From a virus (lineage: Duplodnaviria; Heunggongvirae; Uroviricota; Caudoviricetes): a stretch of DNA of 64,000 nucleotides. Positions within the stretch are counted from its first letter, which is position 1; each line of letters starts with the position of its first letter. A model generated the notes under the pieces. That model worked only from the letters and a program-made list of their open reading frames with translations. It searched no databases and was not told the origin of the DNA. The DNA lies in IMG/VR virus record IMGVR_UViG_2974615235_000001, positions 1,236 to 65,235 of that record. One strand, written 5' to 3'. Made by a program: the position numbers and the translations under genes. This document shows, one piece after another, positions 6,195-62,696 of the stretch.

Positions 6195-6802
6195 ACTTAG
6201 ATGATTATTTAAAAGGTCTTACTAAAGTAACCTCGGAACTAGTAGGGAGTAGATTAGCTATTGCTAAAGGTTCTAACCCTATACCAGCGGTCTTTATAGC
6301 GCGTCAGAAGCATCCTAAGACGTTTTATCCCTATGGGGTATGTGACTATATAGGGAAAGGTAATTATGGCTCTAGGAAGGCGTACAGTTCGTTTAATGAG
6401 GACTCTACAGAGTATACATCCTACTTCAATCGTAGATTAAGACTAAGAGTAGCTTTTTACGGGAAATATGGGGATAACGTACTAGATACGGCAGATGAGT
6501 TAGCCAGTAGATTGAGAACCTCTAAAGGACAACAAGTACTGAGTAGATATATGCCTTGCGCTGGTCTTATGTCTGTATCAGAACCCACTTATAGAGATGA
6601 ACTACTTACTACGGATTACGAAGAGTTTGCTTCTATTACGTTAGACTTCCATATCATATCTGAGATAGTAGACCTTGACTTCTACGCAATTGAACAAGCT
6701 CCTATAGAAGGTGGTCTAGTAGAGGCGGGTAACACTCCTGACATAGACGCTGAGATAGAAGAAATCGCAACCATAACAACAGAGTTTAACCAAAGTAATT
6801 AG
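6191..6802 (+). CDS. tail terminator / sheath initiator-like protein (hypothetical)
   Basis: 203 aa; overlaps upstream stop; immediately precedes putative sheath gene. Confidence 0.3.
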   Translation: MNLDDYLKGLTKVTSELVGSRLAIAKGSNPIPAVFIARQKHPKTFYPYGVCDYIGKGNYGSRKAYSSFNEDSTEYTSYFNRRLRLRVAFYGKYGDNVLDTADELASRLRTSKGQQVLSRYMPCAGLMSVSEPTYRDELLTTDYEEFASITLDFHIISEIVDLDFYAIEQAPIEGGLVEAGNTPDIDAEIEEIATITTEFNQSN

Positions 6803-12353: not shown

Positions 12354-13365
12354 ATACTACGAACTTATTGTAGGCTTCCCTGATACTTATAGATTAGTCT
12401 CTCCTGAGTACCCTTCCCTTAATGCCACTGACTCTGCTGACCTTACTTTTGACCAAAAACCTTTGAACTTTATGACGGTACAGAGGGCAGAGGGTAAAGG
12501 GGTGTCTGTATCAGAGAACCAATTAGTAGCTAAAGTTGGGGGAACTACTCAATCTAAGGGGTCTAATGCAAGGTCTTGTGTGATTACAGTACACAACCTA
12601 TCGGAGGATACAGTTCAAAACCTTACACAGAAGAATCTCAAGGTTATACTGAAAGCAGGTTATAAAGACGACTACGACCAAGATAACTTACCTGTAGTAT
12701 TTTCTGGACAAATAAAGTCAAGCAAGAGGGTACTTAGTAGAGATGTAAATGCGGTAGAGTTAATCTGCGAAGACGGTTACACTCCCTCTAACGCTGTTAA
12801 GGTTAATAAGACCCTCAAGTCAACTCCCTCTAAAACAATCACTGCTAATGATGTATTCGACTACCTCTTGTCTGTTTGGAATAAGAATGGTATTGCCTCT
12901 ACCAAAGATTCTATAAGATTTGACGAACTGCCTATTCACCCTAGTACAGTTCCTTTTAGAGGGGGTTGGACAGGGGAAGGGTATCTCAGGGATCGTATGG
13001 ATGAGATATGCGATGCTTTTAACTACCAATGGTATATCGTTAATGGGACTATCTACATCCAATCTGCTTTCTCAAATAAAGTCAGGGAAGTTATTGAGTT
13101 AGATATGTCACTAGTTAAAGGGATACAAGATGGTAATGAGAACTATAAGAATGACTCCAACCAAGAAGGGAAGTCTCGTATAAAAGTTACTACTTTTCTG
13201 AATGGGGCTATTACAGAAGATAAATTTATTAACCTTACACCTGCCGCCAACGGGAGTAAAGGAAGGACAGATTATACAGGACTTTATAAAGTAATTTCTG
13301 TTAGTCACTCTTTAGATTACAGGGGTAACAAATGGGATACAATAGTGGAGTGTGAGAGCTTATGA
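12334..13365 (+). CDS. baseplate hub-like protein (hypothetical)
   Basis: 343 aa between tape measure and spike/gp25-like genes. Confidence 0.35.
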   Translation: MSYNYLRYYELIVGFPDTYRLVSPEYPSLNATDSADLTFDQKPLNFMTVQRAEGKGVSVSENQLVAKVGGTTQSKGSNARSCVITVHNLSEDTVQNLTQKNLKVILKAGYKDDYDQDNLPVVFSGQIKSSKRVLSRDVNAVELICEDGYTPSNAVKVNKTLKSTPSKTITANDVFDYLLSVWNKNGIASTKDSIRFDELPIHPSTVPFRGGWTGEGYLRDRMDEICDAFNYQWYIVNGTIYIQSAFSNKVREVIELDMSLVKGIQDGNENYKNDSNQEGKSRIKVTTFLNGAITEDKFINLTPAANGSKGRTDYTGLYKVISVSHSLDYRGNKWDTIVECESL

Positions 13366-14084
13366 TAAACCTTACAGAAGTAATACAATCTCATATTAAC
13401 AAAGCTATGTTTAACCTCAATACTTGTGTTCCTGCTTATATTACTGAGGTGGTGGAAAAAGGGGACTTTATAAAAGAAGTATCTGTTAGAATTGTTAATC
13501 AGAAGTCCTACAAGAGTGGAGAAATATTTGAGAGGAATGAAATTACTAACGTCCCTATTTTATTTCCTTCCAGTTCTGAAGGCATAGTATCGTTCCCTGT
13601 TAAGGTAGGAGATACAGTATTGCTTCTATTTTCTCAAGAAGATGTAGACACGTTCCTGCACGACGGTACTAAAGATAAGCCTCCTCAAAGCTTCCGCAAG
13701 TTCTCTTTAACAGATGCAATAGCAGTCCCTTGTGTCCACCCTACTAACTCAGACATAAAAGCCCACAAGGACAATTTCCAGATAACATTTAACGATTTTA
13801 AGCTGTCTGTAAAGCCCTCTGGGGAGACTTCTCTTGAAACTAATACTAGCGTATCAACTAACGCACAAAACCTCATAGAGAGCGTTACAGGGCGTTATAA
13901 GGTAGATTCTAGTATTACAGAGGTAACTTCTGATACGGTAACTATAGGGAATGGGTCTGTTGATATAGTTCAGTACTTATCTGACCTTACTGAGGAGATT
14001 AGTAATATTACGGTAGGTGGAACTCCAATAGATAATAAAGCTAAATTTACAGAACTTAAAGCCTTAATAGACGAACTCAAGTAG
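13362..14084 (+). CDS. baseplate spike / assembly protein (gpV-like, hypothetical)
   Basis: 240 aa directly upstream of gp25/W-like gene as in P2/Mu-type baseplate clusters. Confidence 0.35.
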   Translation: MINLTEVIQSHINKAMFNLNTCVPAYITEVVEKGDFIKEVSVRIVNQKSYKSGEIFERNEITNVPILFPSSSEGIVSFPVKVGDTVLLLFSQEDVDTFLHDGTKDKPPQSFRKFSLTDAIAVPCVHPTNSDIKAHKDNFQITFNDFKLSVKPSGETSLETNTSVSTNAQNLIESVTGRYKVDSSITEVTSDTVTIGNGSVDIVQYLSDLTEEISNITVGGTPIDNKAKFTELKALIDELK

Positions 14085-17371: not shown

Positions 17372-20300
17372 ATGGCACAATTTGAGATTACAGACTTTCC
17401 AGAAATAGCTACGTTAACAGACGAAGAAAACTTTGTATTCTATGTTAAGAGGATTACGGATGGACAAGATTATAAGATTAAGCTAGGCAACTTTCAAGGG
17501 TTAATTCTTGATACTGTGTCTGGACAAGGTGAAGACTTTATACAACAGATAGTAGACCAATTACTACCTGATATAGAGTCTTCTTTTGAACAAGATTTAG
17601 AAGATCAAGTAGCAGAAGCCATAGCCTCTGAAAGAGTTCAAAGGGAAATTGAACTAAAGATTGATGAAATACTAGGGGAGGATTTTGAGAACCCCTATAC
17701 CACCATTGTTGCTGAAGTTAACTCTGTTATCGACAATGCACGTACTAACAAGAAGTTCTCTAAAGAGATTACTCTAGTAAATAATACGCTTGATGTAGTT
17801 AACAATGAAAAATTACCTGCACTACAAGAGGAACTAGATAACCTAAACAATGTAGTGTTACCGCAAGTTAATGCCACTATTGCTCAAGTAGAATCTGATT
17901 TAGCTACTCTTAATGAGGTAGACTTACCTGAGTTAGATACCTCATTAGAGGCTCTGGATGACTCTCTGACAACATTAAATGATGTAACCCTACCTGCCCT
18001 AGAGGGAAGATTAGCACAAGCTGAGATTGAGTTACAGAACCTCAACGCAGTAGACTTGACAGTATTACAGAATGAGCTAGACCAGATTAATGAAGATTTA
18101 GATACACTTAATAATACTACATTACCTGCACTAGAAGCCACTGTACAAGCCGTACAAGACGATTTAGACAATCTTGACCTTACTGGGTTACAGAATGATT
18201 TAAACGCGGCACAGAGCGATATAGACACTCTCAACAACACTACTATCCCTAATATCAATACTACGTTAGGAGGTCTAAGCACAGACTTAGATAACCTTAA
18301 CAATGTAAAGCTACCTGAGATAGATAGTACCTTAGGTGAGTTAGAGAATAACTTGCTAGACTTATCTGATGAACTTACCCTCTTAGATGAGAATACAGAA
18401 GAACTCAATGAAGCACTGTACATTGTTGAGGATATAAATAGTATCCTTGAGAATAGACAAACTCTTAGAGAGCAACGTAAGTCCTCTAATGTATTGGGGA
18501 GAGATTTAGACAACCTTAACCAAGTGGTGTTACCTAATGTACAAGAAACATTAGAAGCTGCTAGGGTTGACATATCTACTCTTAATAACACAACTATCCC
18601 TTCTTTACAAAACTCTGTAAGAGACACCGCTGCTAGTGTTGACACATTGGGGGATAAGTTCCCTATTACGGAAACAGATATAACTGATGGGGCGATCACT
18701 ACTCCCAAGATTGCGACTAATGCAGTCACAGCTAATGAGATACTGGCAGGAACAATAACCTCTAATGAGATTGCTGCCCTTACTATTATTGGTCAGAATA
18801 TCTTAGGAGAAACAATTTCCGCTGACAAACTAATAGCTAACACAATCACTGCCAATGAGATAGCCTCTGAGACTATCACAGGTAATGAGATTGCAGCTAA
18901 CAGTGTCAACGCGGATAGGCTCGTTGCTAACAGTATTACTGCCGCACAGATAGATGCAGGCACAATTACTGCCAATGAACTTTCTGCTGACAGTGTAGAC
19001 ACCTTACAGTTAGTAACTGATTCCGTGATAGCAGATAAGATTGCATCTAACGCAGTTACAGCAGATAAGATACTAGCAGGGAGTGTTACCACTAATAAAC
19101 TATTCTCAGGGGCGGTCACTACAGATAAACTCTTCGCAGGGGCTGTAACCTCAGAGAAGATAGAGTCTCGGACTATTGTAGCAGAGAATATCCAGCTTGG
19201 TACTCTAACAGGTAATGAGATTGCTGTAAATAGTATTAATGCAGACAGGATTGTGGCTAACAGTATAGGCGCTAATCAGATCGCTGCCAATGCTATCACC
19301 GTAGATGAACTTGCTTCTAATAGTGTAACCTCTGTTAAGATTGTATCTGGCGCTATTACGACTGACAAGATGACAGCTAACACAATTAACGGTGACAGGA
19401 TTACTGCTAACACATTAGACGCATCTAAAATTGTTGCTGAGAGTATATCTGCTAGAGAGATTGCCGCCTTATCTATTACAGGTGATTTAATTAAAGGTAA
19501 TACGATAGAAGGGGATAAACTTGTAGTTAACTCTATCTCTGGTGACAGGATTACTACTAACACTCTCAATGGTAATAAGATTACCGCAGGGACTATCAGC
19601 GCAGACAGACTAGTGGCGAATAGCATCACTTCGGGGCAACTTGCTGCTAATAGTGTCACAGCCAGTGAGATTCAGGCAGGTAGTGTCTCTACAGATAAGA
19701 TGGTAGCCAACAGTATTAACGGTGACAGGATTACTTCTAATACTTTACACGCTGATAAAATCGTAGCAGGGACTATTGGTGCTAGAGAGATTACTGCTAA
19801 TAGCATTACAGCAGGAGAGATAGCGTCTCTTACCATAACAGGTAACGAAATCAAAGGTAATAGCGTTCACGCTGATAAGATCATTGCCAACACGATTGGA
19901 GCTAGAGAGATTACTGCTAATAGTATTACATCTGATGAGATTGCCGCTAACACTATTATAGGTGGCAATATCCTCGGTAATACTATCACAGGTGATAAGA
20001 TTAAGGCTAACCAGATTGATGCTAGTCATATACAAGCAGACGCTGTTGAGGCTGATGCTATCAAAGCGAGGGTTATCACAGGAGACAAGTTAGCCTTTGA
20101 GACTATCACAGGTGATTTGATAGCAGCCAATACATTAACCACTAAGAACCTTGTAGTAAGTGACTTTGAGAATCTTACCTATGGAAGTGACTTTGAAGTG
20201 GCAGAGGAAATTCCTTGGGATTTGTCAGACCCTAGCATTTATGTAGTTAACGCAACCAACATATCTCAAAATGCATTACAATTTGCCTCTGAGGGGAGTG

Positions 20301-21664
20301 GTACTAGAAGCACGAGATTGAACTATAACCCAGAAGCTTCTCCTAATGAGGAGTGGTCATTGGAATATGACTTGTATACCACCAATGATTGGAATGGAAG
20401 TTCAGGTAACAGCAAGTTCAGGTTATCAGATGATCTCACCGGAGATTACTTAGCAGACGACCCTTTTGTGAACACAGGGGGAGGGTGGCTTAAAAGAGAG
20501 CATACTTTTACTTTCTCTAGCCCTGCAAGAGTAAATATCCAAATGTGGGCTAATCACACGACGGGTTTTCTTAGAATTACTAATATTAAACTTAGACGTA
20601 AGAAAGCAGGAAACCTTATAGTAGATGGTACTATCACAGCAACTCAGATAGCCGCCGAAGCGATTACTGCTACTAAGCTTAGTGCTGATGCCATAGATGG
20701 TAAACTCATTACAGGGACAATCCTACGCACTTCTGCAAGTACCTCTGTACCAAGAGTTGTTGTAGGCGACCCTTCCTTTCCTTTGTGGTATGGAACGGGG
20801 AATATTTCTACACAGAACATGGTGTTTGGGTTACTCTCTAACGGTACAGCCTATGCACAGAACCTTGTTATAGAGGATAACTCTGTGTTTAAAGGAAACC
20901 TTGTAGCAGCGAGTGGTACATTAGGAACTATAACTTCTGGAACTATCACAGGTACTACGATAAATGGTAACACTATAACAGGTGGTTCTATATCAGGTGC
21001 AACTATATCAGGTAATACTATTACAGGTGGGACTATAAGTGGTACTACTATTACAGGTACAACCGTTACAGGGGGTTTAATACGGACAGCTTCCTCTGGG
21101 TATAGGACAGAGCTTGACGATGGGACATACATGATATGGTCAGGTACTGGTACTAAGAATGACAGTAATGGTATATTCTGGGTTAAGAAGAATGGTACTG
21201 GTTTTATTAAAGGTGACTTCTTTCAAGGGGAAATTCTTGAAACTAAAACTGCTACGTTCTCTGATACAGCGAGTTCGTCAGGTAGTGCTTCTTTGACACA
21301 CAACTCTGCGGGTAAGGCTGTAACTATTAACACTCTTGGTACTTTAAACCTTGAAATGTCCGGAGACCAAAGAGACCAAGCAGGTAAGCTTCAGATAAGA
21401 GTGAGAGTAAAAAGAGGTAGCACTGTTATAGACAGCTATAACGACTATCCCTCTAATGTGGCATACTTGAATGAACCAGAAGCTAATATAAATAAAACCT
21501 TTTTCCGTTTCAGGTCATCTAATTTCTTTTTTGACACTACAACCTCGACAGGTGATAGAACTTACACCTTAGAGGTAGACTTCATAAACGGAGGGGCATC
21601 AGGGACTGTAGCTGTTCCTAATATAGGCGGTTCTATCAAAACCGAAGAAAACAAACTTGCATAG
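17372..21664 (+). CDS. long tail fiber protein (repeat-rich)
   Basis: 1430 aa; about 21-aa LDxLNNxxLP repeats, then about 40 copies of an 11-aa (A/G)N(S/T)ITxxxIxA repeat, then C-terminal TI(T/S)G heptad-like repeats. Confidence 0.7.
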   Translation: MAQFEITDFPEIATLTDEENFVFYVKRITDGQDYKIKLGNFQGLILDTVSGQGEDFIQQIVDQLLPDIESSFEQDLEDQVAEAIASERVQREIELKIDEILGEDFENPYTTIVAEVNSVIDNARTNKKFSKEITLVNNTLDVVNNEKLPALQEELDNLNNVVLPQVNATIAQVESDLATLNEVDLPELDTSLEALDDSLTTLNDVTLPALEGRLAQAEIELQNLNAVDLTVLQNELDQINEDLDTLNNTTLPALEATVQAVQDDLDNLDLTGLQNDLNAAQSDIDTLNNTTIPNINTTLGGLSTDLDNLNNVKLPEIDSTLGELENNLLDLSDELTLLDENTEELNEALYIVEDINSILENRQTLREQRKSSNVLGRDLDNLNQVVLPNVQETLEAARVDISTLNNTTIPSLQNSVRDTAASVDTLGDKFPITETDITDGAITTPKIATNAVTANEILAGTITSNEIAALTIIGQNILGETISADKLIANTITANEIASETITGNEIAANSVNADRLVANSITAAQIDAGTITANELSADSVDTLQLVTDSVIADKIASNAVTADKILAGSVTTNKLFSGAVTTDKLFAGAVTSEKIESRTIVAENIQLGTLTGNEIAVNSINADRIVANSIGANQIAANAITVDELASNSVTSVKIVSGAITTDKMTANTINGDRITANTLDASKIVAESISAREIAALSITGDLIKGNTIEGDKLVVNSISGDRITTNTLNGNKITAGTISADRLVANSITSGQLAANSVTASEIQAGSVSTDKMVANSINGDRITSNTLHADKIVAGTIGAREITANSITAGEIASLTITGNEIKGNSVHADKIIANTIGAREITANSITSDEIAANTIIGGNILGNTITGDKIKANQIDASHIQADAVEADAIKARVITGDKLAFETITGDLIAANTLTTKNLVVSDFENLTYGSDFEVAEEIPWDLSDPSIYVVNATNISQNALQFASEGSGTRSTRLNYNPEASPNEEWSLEYDLYTTNDWNGSSGNSKFRLSDDLTGDYLADDPFVNTGGGWLKREHTFTFSSPARVNIQMWANHTTGFLRITNIKLRRKKAGNLIVDGTITATQIAAEAITATKLSADAIDGKLITGTILRTSASTSVPRVVVGDPSFPLWYGTGNISTQNMVFGLLSNGTAYAQNLVIEDNSVFKGNLVAASGTLGTITSGTITGTTINGNTITGGSISGATISGNTITGGTISGTTITGTTVTGGLIRTASSGYRTELDDGTYMIWSGTGTKNDSNGIFWVKKNGTGFIKGDFFQGEILETKTATFSDTASSSGSASLTHNSAGKAVTINTLGTLNLEMSGDQRDQAGKLQIRVRVKRGSTVIDSYNDYPSNVAYLNEPEANINKTFFRFRSSNFFFDTTTSTGDRTYTLEVDFINGGASGTVAVPNIGGSIKTEENKLA

Positions 21665-25342: not shown

Positions 25343-25556
25343 GATTGATGAGAAGCTCCTAGAAGCCCCTATAAGCCCTTCTTTGTTAGTACCCTGTAGG
25401 GTAGCTTACCCTTTAAAGAGATATGCCTCTGAAGGCTCTCTCAGAGAGTTCTACGAGGTGTCTATATACAATCTAGGTCAGGTTAATAAATGCTACAATA
25501 AAGATGAGGCTTTAATAGAGGAAGTCAAGGAGAGGGATAATGTGGGGAAAGATTAA
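25257..25556 (+). CDS. o-spanin (Rz1-like outer-membrane lipoprotein)
   Basis: 99 aa; signal peptide plus lipobox LILTG|C; Pro/Ser/Thr-rich; starts inside the i-spanin gene in the +1 frame. Confidence 0.65.
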   Translation: MLKKSAILFLLILTGCSTTPSTPSTEVNKIDEKLLEAPISPSLLVPCRVAYPLKRYASEGSLREFYEVSIYNLGQVNKCYNKDEALIEEVKERDNVGKD

Positions 25557-27000: not shown

Positions 27001-27066
27001 CCCTCATAAGAGCCTCTGTAAAGCTCTCTCAGAAGAGTTCTCCTAAAAGATGATACATTGTATAGC
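27001..27066. repeat. intergenic repeat element, copy A
   Basis: ccctcataagagcctctgtaaagctctctcagaagagttctcc ... cattgtatagc; shares core with elements at 30511, 37976, 44109 and 61900. Confidence 0.55.
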
Positions 27067-27077
27067 TTATACAAGAA

Positions 27078-27112
27078 AGCCCCTCAGATTGCTCTGTAGG
27101 GGCTATTTTTAT
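27078..27112. terminator. bidirectional rho-independent terminator between convergent modules
   Basis: agcccct (27078-84) / aggggct (27098-104) stem followed by atttttattta; A-run upstream serves the opposite strand. Confidence 0.6.
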
Positions 27113-30248: not shown

Positions 30249-30497
30249 TTATTCCTCCTCGTAACAACATTGGACAGATACATCACGGTACACTACGTAA
30301 GACCCCTTATACAAACCTTTAATCCTCCTTATACAAGAACGACTGGCCTTGTGCTTATGTCGGTTTGAAAGTCCTGTAAGGATATAATCACATGTCGTAC
30401 TAAAAACTCCTTTTGACAATTCACGAATAATAATTAAAACCATTCCAAATAATATTACACCAAAGATCAAACTAATTACTATTAAATTCTTATCCAT
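30249..30497 (-). CDS. small membrane protein
   Basis: 82 aa; N-terminal TM; RBS GGAGG. Confidence 0.4.
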   Translation of the reverse strand: MDKNLIVISLIFGVILFGMVLIIIRELSKGVFSTTCDYILTGLSNRHKHKASRSCIRRIKGLYKGSYVVYRDVSVQCCYEEE

Positions 30498-30510
30498 AAT
30501 TCCTCCTGTA

Positions 30511-30597
30511 CCGCCCTCTAAGAGCTTATCTATTGCATACCTACCCTACCGTACCTCTTTATAGAGAACTCTATTGAGAGAGCTTCTGAGGGTGTTT
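30511..30597. repeat. intergenic repeat element, copy E (inverted-repeat arms ccctctaagagctt / gagagcttctgaggg)
   Basis: Shares the agctctctc-aga-agttctc and ccctc(t/a)taagagc submotifs with other copies. Confidence 0.5.
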
Positions 30598-30601
30598 AAG
30601 C

Positions 30602-31117
30602 TTACTTAATACTCTTGTTCCACTTAGATATTAACTTAGTTGCTTGTTTTAAGTCAAGTCCATTATGTCCACTTTCTATAATATTCTTGAAACTATTAGC
30701 ATCAGTATGACAAGCCACTACATTACCTTTTACATACCCTTTATTACTGTCTATGCGGTCTATAGTAAGAGTTCTTTTTGTAAGGGGTAGTCCTGTGTAG
30801 TAACACTTCTTAGCCTTCATAATATTCTTTACAGAGGTGAACGATAAGCCAAACTCAATGCCACGTTCTTTTGCGTTGTTGTACTTGGAAGACAGTTTTC
30901 TAGCTACCATGACATCGAAGGGTTCACCTTCATCAATACCACTGACTGAAACTGTCGTAGGTTCTTGGTACATGTCAGGGAAAACTTGTAGTAGCTTCTT
31001 CTCTATTGCAGACGACAACTTGAAAGAAGGAAATCTTGTGAAGTAATCGTCAAGTTCTTCCCTGTTTCTTTGGTCAATACAACGGTTAATATTCTTTAGC
31101 CAGTCACTTCTAATCAT
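30602..31117 (-). CDS. HNH endonuclease
   Basis: 171 aa; C-terminal ...IDRIDSNKGYVKGNVVACHTDANSF.. H-N-H core. Confidence 0.55.
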   Translation of the reverse strand: MIRSDWLKNINRCIDQRNREELDDYFTRFPSFKLSSAIEKKLLQVFPDMYQEPTTVSVSGIDEGEPFDVMVARKLSSKYNNAKERGIEFGLSFTSVKNIMKAKKCYYTGLPLTKRTLTIDRIDSNKGYVKGNVVACHTDANSFKNIIESGHNGLDLKQATKLISKWNKSIK

Positions 31118-37143: not shown

Positions 37144-37797
37144 CTATTCACAAACTAAATTAGGTTCTTTGAAACATGAATGCCCTTTTAATACTTTCCC
37201 GTTCTCATTAAAGAACACTACAAAGTCCTCCCCTTCAAAAGAACGTACTTCTTTACTTACTGCGTGTTGCGGATACGCTTGAACAACTTCTGCATAGTAG
37301 CTTTCAGTGTACTCTTCCAAAGGAATAAATTTTGATAAATTACTCTCCAACACGCTTTCACAGTTTGCTTCGTAGTGTGTTTCATCGCATACCAATACAG
37401 TAAGTAATGTATGTACCATAGCTGAATGGTCTGAGTAGAAATCATAATTATGGAAATCCTCTGGTTTAGTGTCAATGTAAGTGTTAAGTTCTTCTTCTAA
37501 ATCTAACGCATTGTAACCTTGGTCGAAACAAGAATCCCAGTAATACAGGAAATCTTTCTCAGGTACTAAAGGTGCTAATGTAACTAGCCCATCAATAATA
37601 CCATCCATGAACTCTATTTCATTCTTGCTATCAATAATCTCTTGTAGTTCACTCTTGATAATGGGAATCTGCTTAGACTCCACTACTCCATCAGGGTTAG
37701 CGATAGCATTGAATTTATACACTTCTCTGTGAAACCATGTCAAATCGTAGTCGTAGTGTCTTAGTAGTTTACTCTTATACATTCTATTCCTCCTCAA
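37144..37797 (-). CDS. hypothetical protein
   Basis: 217 aa ORF. Confidence 0.3.
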   Translation of the reverse strand: MRRNRMYKSKLLRHYDYDLTWFHREVYKFNAIANPDGVVESKQIPIIKSELQEIIDSKNEIEFMDGIIDGLVTLAPLVPEKDFLYYWDSCFDQGYNALDLEEELNTYIDTKPEDFHNYDFYSDHSAMVHTLLTVLVCDETHYEANCESVLESNLSKFIPLEEYTESYYAEVVQAYPQHAVSKEVRSFEGEDFVVFFNENGKVLKGHSCFKEPNLVCE

Positions 37798-37975
37798 TCT
37801 GTTTAGAGATGTCTTTTATTTCCTTACCTGTCTCAATGATAACTTGCTTAACTCCTCCTGCCTCGTTGACAGTGTGAACTAAGTAAGAACAAGACCCTAC
37901 AAAGGCTACTGCCATCAGTATCATAATACCAATTACTGCCTTAATAATATTATTTGATGTTTTACGTGTATTCAT
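37784..37975 (-). CDS. small membrane protein
   Basis: 63 aa; one TM; RBS AGGAGAT; preceded by conserved upstream element. Confidence 0.35.
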   Translation of the reverse strand: MNTRKTSNNIIKAVIGIMILMAVAFVGSCSYLVHTVNEAGGVKQVIIETGKEIKDISKQIEEE

Positions 37976-38068
37976 TTTATATCTCCTATTTGCTCCTGTA
38001 AAGCTCTCTCGGAGGACTTCTCACCTCTCCCTATACAATCACCTTACTTAATGTTTAAACCTCTTAAA
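37976..38068 (-). repeat. intergenic repeat element, copy B (about 85 nt upstream element with TAAGGTGATTGTATAGGGAGAGG core)
   Basis: Minus-strand reading ggtttaaacattaagTAAGGTGATTGTATAGGGAGAGGtgagaagtcctccgagagagctttacaggagcaaataggagatataaaATG; roughly 75% identical to copy D (not computed). Confidence 0.6.
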
Positions 38069-38075
38069 ATGACTC

Positions 38076-38726
38076 TCAGGTGCTCTTAATCATACGCTCG
38101 AACCACTCTGTTTCCTCTGGAGTTTCTACTTGAGAGTACCTGTCTCCCCAAAGTTTACTATGCAGTTGGTCTAAATCCCTAATGTAAGTAACTCCCTCTG
38201 CACCTTGGTTAAAAGGATAAGATATAAGGTAAGTGTCAATCCCTAAGTTCTTAGCCTTTAGTGCATGGTCTTTATTATCCTCTACAAACACTGCGGGGTC
38301 AAGACGTTTTAACACTTTTTCTTTGCACTGGCCTAACCCTAGAATGATAGTATCGCTGATAAGGCCATCGAAAACTACACGAAGGTAATCCTCTCTAAAA
38401 GAATTATTATAGGGGCAACTCCCAAAGGAAGTCACTACCACTACCTCATACCCTAGACTAACAAAACCTCTGATAGCTTCTTTTGCATTGTCTAACGGGT
38501 ACAAGCATCTTGGGAATCCGTTGAACTCTTTTACTAAGGTTACGAAGTCCTCCTTACACATATTGAGGCCATCTTTCGCTTCAAACCATGTGTGCATATC
38601 GTAGGTGTCTTGGTTAGATAAAGGGTCTATGTGCCATCCGTATGTTTGCTCCACCCAATCAATAAAACCTCCATGCCAGTCTAGCAATACTCCGTCACAA
38701 TCCAGTGCTATAATTTGCTTAGTCAT
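38076..38726 (-). CDS. HAD-superfamily 5'(3')-deoxyribonucleotidase-like protein
   Basis: 216 aa; N-terminal DxDGV motif (ALDCDGVLLDW) typical of HAD phosphatases/NT5C-type nucleotidases. Confidence 0.5.
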   Translation of the reverse strand: MTKQIIALDCDGVLLDWHGGFIDWVEQTYGWHIDPLSNQDTYDMHTWFEAKDGLNMCKEDFVTLVKEFNGFPRCLYPLDNAKEAIRGFVSLGYEVVVVTSFGSCPYNNSFREDYLRVVFDGLISDTIILGLGQCKEKVLKRLDPAVFVEDNKDHALKAKNLGIDTYLISYPFNQGAEGVTYIRDLDQLHSKLWGDRYSQVETPEETEWFERMIKST

Positions 38727-44108: not shown

Positions 44109-44232
44109 ATTTACTCTCCTTATAATTCTCTTTGTAAAGCCCTCTAAGAAGACTTCTCTGTAAAGGTATACAATGCCTTTAATTTAGTGAGAAGTCCTCT
44201 CAGGATGGCGTATGCTTCGTTATATGACGTTA
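44109..44232 (-). repeat. intergenic repeat element, copy C
   Basis: Minus-strand aaggcattgtatacc...gagaagtcttcttagagggctttacaaagag; also gagaagtcctctcagg on the plus strand at 44187-44205. Confidence 0.5.
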
Positions 44233-45923: not shown

Positions 45924-46517
45924 TTATTTTAAATTAATTTTAGTTTCTCTATAAATCATAAGCATTTCAAAAGCAGCTCGACCATTAATAAAACTTGAAA
46001 TAGACGTTCTACTTCTTCCTAGAGCTTTTGCTATTTCATTAATAGAGTAACCTTTATGTTCTAGGATTGCAATATTTTTAGCGTCATTTTTTGTAAACCT
46101 ATTATACTTCCTCCCTACCTTGACGTTGTTAACTTTACCCGCAGAAACTCCATGTTGGATATTCTCAGAAGGCGTACACCACTCTAAGTTACATGCCCTA
46201 TTATCTTTATGATCACTATTAATATGATTTACTTGTGTTTTACTATCAGGGTTATCATTACCGCAAAAATGCTCTGCTATGAGTCTATGCAGATAATAAC
46301 TTTTGTACACCCTATTCCCGTAACAAAGCCTGATCGTTAGATATAAGCTTGTATGTTTAGATGGGGTCAATACTCTACCTTTTACAATCTTAGAGAATCC
46401 ATTTTTATTAACAACCTCTCTATCGAGAGAGCGAACTCTCCCTTCACTACTGACCTCGTATAAACCTTCAAAACCGTTCACTCCTTTCCAAGTCTCGCTA
46501 TTACTAGTGACAATCAT
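45924..46517 (-). CDS. HNH endonuclease (with NUMOD-like helix)
   Basis: 197 aa; GLYEVSSEGRVRS N-terminal, VNHINSDHKDNRACNLEW H-N-H core; C-terminal HTH-like KNIAILEHKGYSINEIAKALG. Confidence 0.65.
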   Translation of the reverse strand: MIVTSNSETWKGVNGFEGLYEVSSEGRVRSLDREVVNKNGFSKIVKGRVLTPSKHTSLYLTIRLCYGNRVYKSYYLHRLIAEHFCGNDNPDSKTQVNHINSDHKDNRACNLEWCTPSENIQHGVSAGKVNNVKVGRKYNRFTKNDAKNIAILEHKGYSINEIAKALGRSRTSISSFINGRAAFEMLMIYRETKINLK

Positions 46518-53771: not shown

Positions 53772-54127
53772 AGTGACTCTCCTTCTAATTTTCTGAATAA
53801 GATAGCGTCACGCCTCTGCTCGTTGTAAAGGTCTCTTGTTTTAGGGTGAACTTGTAAAGCATAGTCCACACAAGCATGTCTAGAGACAAAACCCTCTACT
53901 TTCGTAGCTGTCTGTAGACAATCCTCTACGTCAGTTACCATCACAGTCCAACCTGCTTTATGTTTGTCCTTTATGACATAGCATATAAAGTGTTCCCCCA
54001 GAAAGAACTTTTTCCAATGATCCCAATTTCCATGCTTCTTAAACTCAAAATCGTAGGGTTTTCCATCTACGAAACCAAAGTACTTACTCATAATTACTCT
54101 CCCATTTAAAATCCTCTCTGCAATCAA
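53768..54127 (-). CDS. hypothetical protein
   Basis: 119 aa. Confidence 0.3.
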   Translation of the reverse strand: MIAERILNGRVIMSKYFGFVDGKPYDFEFKKHGNWDHWKKFFLGEHFICYVIKDKHKAGWTVMVTDVEDCLQTATKVEGFVSRHACVDYALQVHPKTRDLYNEQRRDAILFRKLEGESL

Positions 54128-54221
54128 TTCTAAGAGGACGTAATTCTTACCAATACCGTTGTATACTTAAAGGGTAGATCTCTTGTTATAGTGGCTTACA
54201 GGGCGTTATACGGCCACCTAA

Positions 54222-57453: not shown

Positions 57454-57502
57454 GCACCCTTGCCTGAGATAATGGTAAGGGTGTTTTTTTTTTTTTTTTT
57501 TT
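57454..57502 (+). terminator. rho-independent terminator with T19 tract
   Basis: gcacccttgcc / ggtaagggtg stem (one G.U position) followed by 19 consecutive T (57484-57502). Confidence 0.65.
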
Positions 57503-57510
57503 AATAGTAG

Positions 57511-59600: not shown

Positions 59601-59925
59601 TTTCTGGAGAGGATACAGAAAAGGGTGGTACAAAGGGTTTGTACTAGGAACACTCTATACAACTATTCTTTACACAATAGTTGTTATCTACTGGACAAAC
59701 TTACAAGGATTGTTCTTCTAAAATTAGAATGCCTATTATAGCCTCTCAGACACGTTCTGAGGGGTTTTCTTGTATATGCTAGTATGATTGTATACCTTAA
59801 AATTAAATCCTCTTAAAATGGCTTACAGGAGCTTACACTGAATATAGATAAGTATACACAAATGACACTAAAATAGATAAAAAGCGTAGACATAAGAATA
59901 ATTTCAAAATAATTGAAAATAATGT

Positions 59926-60855: not shown

Positions 60856-61485
60856 GTGATGAGTGATTTAGAAAAGTTGTTTGAACATGCGCCAGAGGGT
60901 GCGGTTGAGTTAAGGGAAACTCTTAATGGTGGTTATTTAAGGTGGTTTAACAAAAATAACGATGCATGGGGAGGTAACGAATGGACCACACCTGACTGTG
61001 GAGAATATAAAACCCTAGCCACACGACCACAGCCACAGCGTAAAACGGTGGAGGATGCGGTTGATGAGCACAAGGGTAAGTGGCCTTTTAGTCTCGGAGT
61101 TATACGCATGGGTTACTCATCAAAACTCGAACATTACTTTGCTTTTGGACATGGCTATGATTTTTGTGAAGGGGAATACCTAGTCTGCACCCGCGAAGAA
61201 TTCGAAGCCTGTGTTGCTGCTAAGAGCGAGCCTGAGTGGACGCATATTTACAACGGGGAAGAGTGCTACATAGCTACAACATATAACGATTGTGCATGGG
61301 TTGTGCGAAGGATGACTGACGACAAGATTGTACTATTGGAAGACCTAAAACCCATCAAGCCTACAATCACAGAAAAAGAACGTGAAACAGTAGCTAAGTT
61401 TGTAGCGCGTATATACACAAAAGAAAGTTACGACTTGCGTAAAGAGTTTGACGACTTTGTTAATGAGCATGAGGTAGGAGAATGA
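60856..61485 (+). CDS. hypothetical protein
   Basis: 209 aa; RBS GAGGAG. Confidence 0.4.
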   Translation: MMSDLEKLFEHAPEGAVELRETLNGGYLRWFNKNNDAWGGNEWTTPDCGEYKTLATRPQPQRKTVEDAVDEHKGKWPFSLGVIRMGYSSKLEHYFAFGHGYDFCEGEYLVCTREEFEACVAAKSEPEWTHIYNGEECYIATTYNDCAWVVRRMTDDKIVLLEDLKPIKPTITEKERETVAKFVARIYTKESYDLRKEFDDFVNEHEVGE

Positions 61486-61899: not shown

Positions 61900-62009
61900 A
61901 TAACACCCTCAGAGCTATTCTAAGAGGGTTTAATTTTAACTAAGGTGATTGTATAGGGAGAGGGTAGAAGTCCTCTCAGAGAGCCATACAGAGACAATTA
62001 GGAGGGAAA
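61900..62009 (+). repeat. intergenic repeat element, copy D (inverted-repeat arm plus about 85 nt upstream element with TAAGGTGATTGTATAGGGAGAGG core)
   Basis: ccctcagagctattctaagaggg hairpin, then ggtttaattttaacTAAGGTGATTGTATAGGGAGAGGgtagaagtcctctcagagagccatacagagacaattaggagggaaaATG. Confidence 0.6.
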
Positions 62010-62270
62010 ATGAAACGATTAATACTAACACTAGGGCTGGCGCTATTTCTCACTGGGTGTGTGGAGGAAAAAGTGGTTTATTTGAATGAGAAAGGTGAAG
62101 AGTTAGCGCCACCTGCTAGAGCTATGCCTGATTGGAGCAATAACGTAAAGGAAATTTGTGTTAAAGGGGTTGTGTATTATCACACTACATACGGGGCTAG
62201 TGCAACGATGTCTCCTAAGATTATACCTAGTAACAACCAGTTCAATAAACCTTTTATAGAAAAATGCTAG
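62010..62270 (+). CDS. small lipoprotein
   Basis: 86 aa; signal peptide plus lipobox FLTG|C; RBS AGGAGGG; preceded by conserved upstream element. Confidence 0.5.
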   Translation: MKRLILTLGLALFLTGCVEEKVVYLNEKGEELAPPARAMPDWSNNVKEICVKGVVYYHTTYGASATMSPKIIPSNNQFNKPFIEKC

Positions 62271-62696
62271 AGACAGTTCCAGTTAAAAATTTGACCCGTT
62301 TGAGAGTCCCATTGGCTTAGTTGCTAGTGGGATTTTTCTTTTTAGGGATCGACACAAAAACCACTGAAGTCTAGAGTAAAAGCTGGCTAGGTTTTTGACC
62401 CAAAGGGGATTTTCTCTAGCCTAGAGGCAATCGTGATTAGGCTAGACACTTTTTTCATTAGAAAGCTAAGGAATTTTCATAAGGATAAGCATATATTAGA
62501 GAAACCTTTTATAATGGACAGCTTACATTCATGGGATTTATAGAGGGGATTTATTATATAAATGGCAAGTTGGCATGAAAATTAATAAAGCAAATAGTGT
62601 GCCAATTTATTTTCTATCGGGCAGGGTTGGTGTTTGTTTCGTACCGCATCAGCACCTATGGCGTTTTATTTATCAATTTGTAAAGCTAGTATAAAG

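Follow-up and report, generated by a model that had tools for sequence, protein, structure and literature searches.

Two unrelated small genes on opposite strands of a marine phage genome are preceded by almost the same stretch of non-coding DNA, raising the question of what this element is and what has kept its two copies alike. Both lie within a 64,000-nucleotide stretch of viral DNA (the window; positions are window positions unless another record is named), which corresponds with 100% identity to bases 1236-65235 of the 92,760-bp genome of Alteromonas phage vB_AmeM_PT11-V22 (MN877442; genus Myoalterovirus), referred to here as V22. Copy A lies on the minus strand upstream of open reading frame (ORF) 51, and copy B on the plus strand upstream of ORF98. 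To our knowledge, no transcription signals have been described in Alteromonas myoviruses. The explanation favored here, which we give roughly an even chance, is that the two copies are composite cassettes, derived from an older family of intercistronic hairpins, in which a terminator-like hairpin precedes a weak promoter dependent on a factor and a leader carrying the ribosome-binding site (RBS).

Aligned without gaps, 37983-38080 and 61907-62004 agree at 79 of 98 positions (81%), and the alignment includes a perfect 23-mer, TAAGGTGATTGTATAGGGAGAGG, at 38046-38024 (minus strand) and 61941-61963 (plus strand). An earlier note on this DNA had described this near-identical pair and called for a search for further copies. 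The search was run, as were the polymerase and sigma factor searches described below, on the complete V22 genome as well as the window, and the 23-mer was found only twice with up to three mismatches allowed. A third copy is not expected by chance (0 in 100 shuffles of the window, up to three mismatches), and, given 79 matches in 98 positions, 23 consecutive matches are no more than marginally unusual (P = 0.066). The spacing to the RBS and ATG, described as the same in both copies, is nearly but not exactly so, the end of the core lying 48 nt from the ATG in A and 46 nt in B, and the end coordinate previously given for A, 38068, cuts off an element that reaches about 38085. The genes served are indeed a small membrane protein (ORF51) and a lipoprotein (ORF98). 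Because the two proteins are unrelated (BLASTP E = 4) and the similarity stops at the start codons, the pair did not arise by duplication of coding sequence; the suspicion of recent copying holds for the non-coding DNA only, in the form of the gene conversion discussed below. Both this gene-conversion share of the identity and a wider palindromic intergenic family had escaped the earlier note.

Cassette A as a whole (37976..38085, minus strand; nhmmer E = 1e-33) extends from the ORF52 stop codon to the ORF51 ATG. Its left arm, CACCTGAGAGTCATTTTAAGAGG (38060..38082), overlaps the ORF52 stop codon and forms a weak hairpin followed by a T/A-rich run, with helix 1 paired in 94% of alignment cells. 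The centre, TTTAAACATTAAGTAAGGTGATTGTAT (38033..38059), is the conserved promoter-like part; it contains TTGTATA, and within it TAAGGT (38046-38041) stands 17 nt after TTTTAA. The exact 23-mer (38024..38046) runs from the centre into a variable spacer specific to V22, AGGGAGAGGTG (38022..38032), and is followed by the right arm, AGAAGTCCTCCGAGAGAGCTTTACAGGAGC (37992..38021), with the family blocks GAGAAGTCCTC and GCyTTACAG. The RBS AGGAG and the ATG occupy 37973..37991, and ORF51 (37784..37975, minus strand) encodes a 63-aa single-pass membrane protein with one N-terminal hydrophobic helix. In cassette B (61904..62009, plus strand; E = 1e-31), the left arm CACCCTCAGAGCTATTCTAAGAGGG (61904..61928) is terminator-like, with a 5+3 bp hairpin followed by TTTAATTTT, and a terminator scan flags this hairpin on the opposite strand. 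The centre TTTAATTTTAACTAAGGTGATTGTAT (61929..61954), the exact 23-mer (61941..61963) and the right arm AGAAGTCCTCTCAGAGAGCCATACAGAGAC (61966..61995) follow. ORF98 (62010..62270, plus strand) encodes an 86-aa lipoprotein with the lipobox LTGC and a Pfam LPAM_1 match, and behind it stands a strong intrinsic terminator (62304..62343; a stem, then GGGATTTTTCTTTTT) that is conserved in the related contig L022. The gene behind cassette B forms a closed unit of upstream hairpin with T-run, centre, RBS, gene and strong conserved terminator.

Among GenBank phages, the closest relative shares only 48% DNA polymerase identity with V22 and the element is unmatched there, and IMG/VR searches with a 20-mer and with a right-arm pattern gave no matches. 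Homologs of ORF52 (65-78% identity) in a large metagenome protein collection led to the syntenic contigs L004, L008, L009, L010 and L006, and from homologs of ORF98 (67%) in a metagenome protein collection came a TARA/Logan lineage (L021-L025) as well as L026. A centre-based pattern applied to IMG/VR added the relatives L039 and L040; its matches in bacterial genomes (29, against about 39 expected by chance) were discarded. Orthologs of A were found after the ORF52 homolog in L004, L008, L009, L010 and L039, and orthologs of B before the ORF98 homolog in L021-L025. Contigs L003 and L006 lack the element and were uninformative.

The A/B-type centre spans about 40 nt, consisting of TTCTAAGAGG, a T-rich stretch and TAAGGTGATTGTATAGGG. 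All copies share one layout, in which TTCTAA or TTTTAA is followed by 17 nt, TAAGGT and then GATTGTA, with TAAGGT replaced by TAGTAT in L009 and in member C of the family described below; the start codon always lies 69-73 nt downstream of TAAGGT. Between V22 and L022, copy B is 93% identical in the centre-left part, 67% in the right part and 92% in the RBS, compared with 89% for ORF97 and 76% for ORF98, and the 42 nt of its left arm and centre, ATTCTAAGAGGGTTTAATTTTAACTAAGGTGATTGTATAGGG, are fully identical. The corresponding values for copy A are 82%, 68% and 71% between V22 and L004 (ORF52, 71%), 78%, 64% and 100% between V22 and L010 (ORF52, 65%), and 69%, 56% and 86% between V22 and L009 (ORF52, 71%). 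The cassette centre matches or exceeds the flanking genes in conservation. In nine lineage copies its distance from the start codon is fixed, and this centre of about 40 nt is under purifying selection.

Within the 23-mer, conservation is uneven. The segment TAAGGTGATTGTA is kept in orthologous cassettes, L009 alone having diverged to TAGTATGGTTGGTA, and at the TTGTATA position L004 and L008 carry TTGTACT and L009 TTGGTAG. TATAGGG is retained in five of nine lineage copies, its place being taken by TACTAGG or TACTGGG in L004 and L008 and by GGTAGGGG (at -4..+3) in L009. The adjoining AGAGG(TG/GT) is swapped in relatives for unrelated sequence of the same length (CTAGGTACTAGG, AAGGTAATAGG, GGGGTAGTCTA and others); AGAGG occurs only in V22, and GAGAGG is absent from all relatives. 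An alignment of eight sequences, in which the right part comprises the 43 columns from TTGTAT to the RBS, reveals a mosaic. The left arm and centre follow orthology, with identities of 95% between V22-B and L022-B, 88% between V22-A and L004-A, and 74% between V22-A and V22-B. In the right part, the two V22 paralogs are instead 79% alike, compared with 53-67% to their orthologs (67% for the right arm of B). As the right part is most alike between the V22 paralogs, the alignment indicates gene conversion, and part of the A/B identity would reflect one V22 copy overwriting the other. This exchange would also explain why AGAGG and the right arm that follows are common to A and B. The perfect 23-mer is accordingly a composite, in which TAAGGTGATTGTA is selected, TAGGG is selected to a degree, and the rest was homogenised by gene conversion within the V22 lineage.

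The regulatory part of the cassette is more constant than the gene it serves, as four different genes stand behind it across phages. ORF51 does so in V22 and L010 and is absent from L004, L008, L009 and L039, in which the cassette leads straight into the ORF50 homolog. The others are ORF98, behind cassette B, and a 146-aa ORF in L026 and L040, inserted before the lipoprotein gene. In L026 (6870-6940), where the lipoprotein gene has ATA in place of the V22 ATG, that gene may be in decay or rely on translational coupling.

About nine family members emerge in V22 when a profile is made from the A/B copies, and hits in the family have E values of 1e-5 to 1e-8. Judged by this profile, the pair belongs to a family of intergenic imperfect palindromes of about 100 nt that also occurs in related and distant marine phages. 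The family unit comprises a left arm, GCyCCTGTAAGGCcATTCTAAGAGG, a variable centre and a right arm, (GAGAAGT)CCTCTTAGAGAGCCTTACAGGAGC. Member D (44109-44209, minus strand; E = 2e-8), upstream of ORF62, forms a long hairpin of 15+6 bp with TTGTATA in the loop (z = -3.5), and its ortholog at L004:4232-4345 folds similarly well (z = -4.0). Member F (27001-27103, minus strand; E = 3e-6) occupies a convergent gap after ORF36 with no gene downstream. Member C (59740-59834; E = 7e-6) follows the terminator of ORF91; both of its strands match the profile, and the plus strand carries TGCTAGTATGATTGTATACC. Member I (54118-54206, plus strand; E = 1e-5), between ORF80 and ORF79, has no significant fold and is conserved in L021. 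Member H (13803-13899, minus strand; E = 6e-5) lies antisense within the coding region of ORF19 (13362-14084, plus strand). Two further members are weak: G (30495-30595, minus strand; E = 0.1), after ORF40, is degenerate, and E (25425-25473, minus strand) is a partial copy with GATTGTATA and the right arm, antisense in the late-gene cluster. A profile match inside ORF10 (J, 6297-6399) is probably spurious; it sits in a Pfam domain.

The right-arm pattern recovered further members from marine metagenomes, including one in L015, a phage whose proteins are only about 25% identical to those of V22. Single long hairpins are formed by L015 (z = -6.8), L004-D, V22-D and the F-type copy of L021 (z = -3.3); these lack U-tracts and lie 15-25 nt before an RBS. 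Copies A and B do not fold significantly (z = -0.9 and -1.7), and the A/B type looks like a hairpin opened by the conserved centre. Members C and F have strong terminators at the position of the left-arm hairpin. Members D, C and I are found at orthologous places in relatives, in contrast to the F-type sites, which differ: in V22 the convergent junction at 27 kb without a gene, and in L021 the early region before a 59-aa ORF. Where L021 has this F-type cassette and 59-aa ORF, V22 has a run of 19 T (57485-57510, plus strand) after the terminator hairpin behind ORF86, just before a consensus TTGACA promoter. Two other observations concern individual members. Member H lies inside the baseplate gene ORF19, C-terminal to its Pfam domain, with a 30-pair hairpin (z = -2.1). 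It may represent a palindromic insertion in frame, of the type of the Rickettsia palindromic element (RPE), or an antisense signal. Directly downstream of member G, an unannotated 82-aa ORF (30249-30497, minus strand) has a good RBS, GGAGGAATTATG, and a hydrophobic N-terminus, and no Pfam match.

Taken as a composite cassette, the element would be a lineage-conserved intergenic regulatory unit of about 105 nt in V22-like marine myoviruses, descended from the wider family of long imperfect-palindrome hairpins. Its first part, the terminator-like hairpin with a T/A-rich tail, would insulate the downstream gene from upstream transcription. The second, the conserved centre of about 40 nt (TTCTAA-17 nt-TAAGGT-GATTGTATAGGG), is most likely a weak promoter without a sigma-70 consensus, which host RNA polymerase, aided by a phage factor, would use to start near TATAGGG; the predicted start is the A of GTATAGGG. 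The third would be a purine-rich leader able to fold back on TTGTA, followed by the ribosome site, and the whole would serve any small accessory gene that happens to follow. The putative -35 and -10 elements each match sigma-70 at three of six positions, keeping the TAnnnT signature, and among non-homopolymer 7-mers TTGTATA shows the strongest enrichment in non-coding DNA (15 of 32 occurrences, p = 3e-7).

Several points weigh against this reading. We infer promoter activity, a start site and a trans-acting factor from sequence. The putative -35 and -10 fall below the threshold of the consensus scan, which reports no sigma-70 site at either core, and the proposed -35 shares sequence with the hairpin arm, whose conservation has its own reasons. 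Domain scans of about 30 ORFs and six-frame homology searches identified no activator or sigma factor in the genome. Each TTGTA has a complementary TACAR downstream, so that RNA pairing, instead of a promoter, could be what conserves it, and the promoter model leaves unexplained the family members that lie antisense or within a gene. The gene-conversion argument, finally, is based on 43 alignment columns.

Other candidate signals and factors were considered along the way. A TTTACA-17-TAAAAT match in copy A was rejected, as it runs over the RBS and ATG and has no counterpart in B. ORF123 was set aside as a sigma factor, having only a C-terminal helix-turn-helix with a sub-threshold region-4 match. 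ORF96 (60859-61485, plus strand), near B and annotated with a transcription termination-antitermination domain, has no Pfam, PHROG or PDB sequence match and belongs to a family of at least 80 marine-phage proteins. Its confident AlphaFold2 (AF2) model (pLDDT 87) consists of small beta-barrel repeats, for which the fold search gave no better than weak Spt5/KOW-like matches (E >= 0.14). ORF40 (30602-31117, minus strand), annotated as an anti-sigma factor, has PHROG matches to T4 Srd, a sigma-70 decoy. Its annotation is ambiguous because HNH endonuclease PHROG families match equally well, and an Srd-like decoy would fit with a modified host RNA polymerase.

The closest known counterparts of such a cassette are the promoter-early stem-loops (PeSLs), composite terminator/promoter cassettes of T4-like phages whose promoters match the sigma-70 consensus and which number about 50 per genome (PMC2839356, PMC4122927). 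Like PeSLs, the V22 cassette is a short repeated intergenic module of stem-loop, AT-rich tract and (in V22, putative) promoter before small ORFan genes, with different genes behind the same cassette in related phages. The left-arm hairpin with TTTAATTTT provides the adjacent stem-loop with terminator potential and the AT-rich tract, and recombination of copies is visible in the presence or absence of ORF51 and the 146-aa ORF, in the gene-conversion signal and in the non-orthologous F sites. Unlike PeSLs, the A/B centre matches only 6 of 12 sigma-70 consensus positions, and the cassette has a long leader and descends from a long palindromic hairpin family. Its host genome, a 92.8-kb Myoalterovirus, belongs to an unrelated myovirus genus and has about nine members, two of them of the A/B type. 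Given the lack of a sigma-70 consensus, the different phage group and the few copies, the cassette is not a member of the PeSL family. The second likeness is to morons. ORF98 is a single accessory gene between an upstream hairpin with a promoter-like centre and a strong downstream terminator, and ORF51 and the 146-aa ORF of L026 are present or absent directly behind the cassette. Morons, however, are defined in temperate phages and expressed from the prophage, whereas V22 is strictly lytic, and in V22 the conserved unit is the regulatory part rather than the gene. The best reading of these comparisons, held with no more than middling confidence, is that the cassette, known here from its sequence, would function like PeSLs and moron units.

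Among the alternatives, the one that survives best, though we consider it somewhat unlikely, is that there is no promoter and the element acts in RNA only, as an intercistronic hairpin in polycistronic transcripts that would be cleaved, in the manner of the RNase III type R sites of T7, or would stabilise or insulate flanking messages and set downstream translation. Four members (D, L004-D, L015 and L021-F) form long imperfect hairpins with 24-33 pairs, positioned as described above, and the sense strand usually folds better than the antisense strand (13 of 18), an advantage that may reflect G+U richness. In A/B-type copies, TTGTA always has its downstream TACAR partner, with compensatory variants in L004 (TTGTAC/GTACAG), in L010 and L039 (GATTGTAT/ATACAATC) and in L026 (TTGTATA/TATACAG). 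A consensus hairpin pairs in 84.7% of alignment cells, compared with 78.7 +/- 1.9% in shuffles (1 of 500 shuffles; eight sequences), the covariation score is 0.234 against 0.157 in shuffles (3 of 500), and five pairs of the apical helix change on both sides; the structure tested was, however, derived from the same eight related sequences. In opposition to this, A and B do not fold significantly, the best-conserved part, the centre, is kept as sequence, and the hairpin-forming right arm has almost wholly diverged in the B ortholog (67%). RNAalifold, too, gives a weak consensus energy (-4.2 kcal/mol) and no covariation bonus. Because the TTGTA partner shifts between copies, there is no single consensus RNA structure for all members, and Rfam covariance models gave chance-level matches only (E >= 0.9, far below gathering scores). 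As in RNase III sites of the T7 group, related intercistronic imperfect hairpins stand just upstream of an RBS in D, L015 and L004-D, and these have the stable stem of at least about 20 bp between cistrons expected of such sites. The A/B copies, by contrast, lack it, their arms being degraded, and there is no sequence relationship to the T7 group. In combination, conserved RNA structure in the A/B type is suggested rather than established.

A bolder proposal would make the family an undescribed set of horizontally spreading palindromic regulatory cassettes in unrelated phages (V22-like myoviruses, L015, possibly phiEco32 and 50-94-kb marine contigs), with conserved TTCTAAGAGG and TAAGGTGATTGTATA boxes read by a phage or host factor, forming a new promoter/operator class embedded in a processing hairpin. 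This we consider decidedly unlikely. In phiEco32 and about 79 Kuravirus genomes, CCTGTAAGCCTCATTAAGAGGCTTTTTTCTTTTCTAAGGTGATTGTATACC lies right after gene 125, with a clear terminator followed by an exact 13-mer centre, TAAGGTGATTGTATACC. The site (L076:1611-1672; NC_010324, about 74,620-74,680, minus strand) has the family left arm and a terminator T-run, but its profile score is weak after correction for its discovery (E = 0.005-0.02), with about four chance pattern matches expected. The same 17-mer, TAAGGTGATTGTATAGG, occurs in 13 marine IMG/VR contigs of 51-94 kb (L030-L038, L041, L043, L045 and L046), within an array of TTAAGAAGG-like/TTAGAAGRG boxes of iteron-like look (L031:10400-10640, with a tandem duplicate in L031); the fetched DNA of these contigs showed no protein similarity to V22. 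The phiEco32 and marine-contig matches hint at a wider distribution of the motif and prove nothing.

It is quite improbable that GATTGTATA is a single-element promoter for a phage-encoded sigma-like factor, as tAATGTAtA is for gp36 in phiEco32, with a start 6-8 nt downstream in the variable spacer. Its match to the gp36 consensus at seven of nine positions (PMC8948821), the enrichment of TTGTATA in intergenic DNA, often after terminators, and the presence in phiEco32 of TAAGGTGATTGTATACC, with an exact TAAGGTGATTGTA, directly after a terminator would all fit a single short TGTATA-type element. However, six-frame searches of V22 found no gp36 homolog (best E = 0.2), and Pfam and PHROG scans of about 30 ORFs gave no sigma domain above threshold, the ORF123 match included. 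The V22 motif varies in the L004, L008 and L009 orthologs, roughly one in two intergenic TTGTATA sites is directed away from genes, and the phiEco32 look-alike is not among the six mapped gp36 promoters (PMC4331800). With no homolog and no mapped promoter at the look-alike site, a phiEco32-type sigma factor was rejected.

More doubtful still is that the family is a selfish palindromic repeat, resembling miniature inverted-repeat transposable elements (MITEs) or repetitive extragenic palindromic (REP) sequences, that spread through intergenic DNA and left A and B as its youngest copies without a regulatory role. Like Correia/MITE and REP elements, which can carry promoter or processing functions, family members are imperfect palindromes of about 100 nt with inverted-repeat arms, here around a variable centre, and occur in both orientations. 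Member H sits within a coding region, F-type copies stand at non-orthologous sites, L006 has no A copy, and L015 is a distant phage. Unlike such repeats, A, B, C, D and I stand at orthologous sites in the different lineages, with conservation that equals or exceeds the coding level, and RBS spacing is fixed. The terminal inverted repeats are present, but the copies are few and only 60-80% alike within V22 rather than near-identical, with no transposase and no target-site duplication seen at their ends.

The T7-type single-subunit RNA polymerase promoter proposed in the earlier note has a negligible chance. At the core, TATAGGGAGA is identical to the initiation region of T7 promoters and AGGTGA-3 nt-TATAG agrees with the SP6 promoter, with TATAGGG retained as described above; yet six-frame tblastn and phmmer searches of the V22 genome with T7 RNA polymerase gave nothing with E below 0.7, so that the absence of a polymerase gene noted for the window holds for the complete genome, and the sole unassigned large ORF (ORF155, 846 aa) is an Ig-like/PKD/esterase (SASA) protein. 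The core, moreover, has only two copies in 92.8 kb and is not repeated before many middle or late genes, and neither GGGAGAGG nor the initiation region from -4 to +6 is conserved in orthologous elements. With no polymerase and no conserved initiation region, this reading was rejected. Because AGAGG is replaced and TATAGGG only partly kept in relatives, the T7-like segment is largely specific to V22, and its resemblance to T7 and SP6 promoters is best treated as coincidence. No such polymerase is listed in the genome annotation, and the V22 genome paper likewise reports no polymerase and mentions no sigma factor or promoters (PMC7289586). The fallback offered alongside the T7 proposal is plausible, with the best remaining readings among its options: a promoter that is phage-specific or depends on a factor, or a 5' leader element that is conserved.

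Some features noted during the analysis stand apart from the cassette. A second recurrent intergenic motif, GGTAGCTACCCTACAGGGTA, occurs at 25390-25420 (plus strand) and at L019:2610-2640, and AGGGTAG/CTACCCT has 9 of its 19 occurrences in non-coding DNA. A 197-aa ORF with NUMOD4/HNH_3 homing-endonuclease domains (45924-46517, minus strand) adjoins the DNA polymerase gene, in a 643-nt stretch left unannotated in MN877442, and the 1430-aa tail protein ORF24 (18695-21059, plus strand) is built of dozens of diverged 30-nt (10-residue) repeats. Outside the window, 1.6 kb of the record (69366-70986; L002:23366-24986) contains no annotated gene, tRNA or Rfam family, with a weak right-arm match inside it at record 70857-70888. 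Two tRNA-like sequences, judged by eye only, open contig L006 (1-165); V22 itself has no tRNA genes (PMC7289586).

For genome scans, these results carry the caution that a striking T7-like motif can stem from gene conversion within a genome. The cassette itself is a compact promoter/leader candidate for engineering Alteromonas myoviruses. If the composite-cassette reading is true, a conserved cassette drives small membrane protein and lipoprotein genes with candidate functions in superinfection exclusion or lysis, and its role as a landing pad would show how accessory genes plug into lytic marine phage genomes. The PeSL principle would then extend beyond the T4-like phages.

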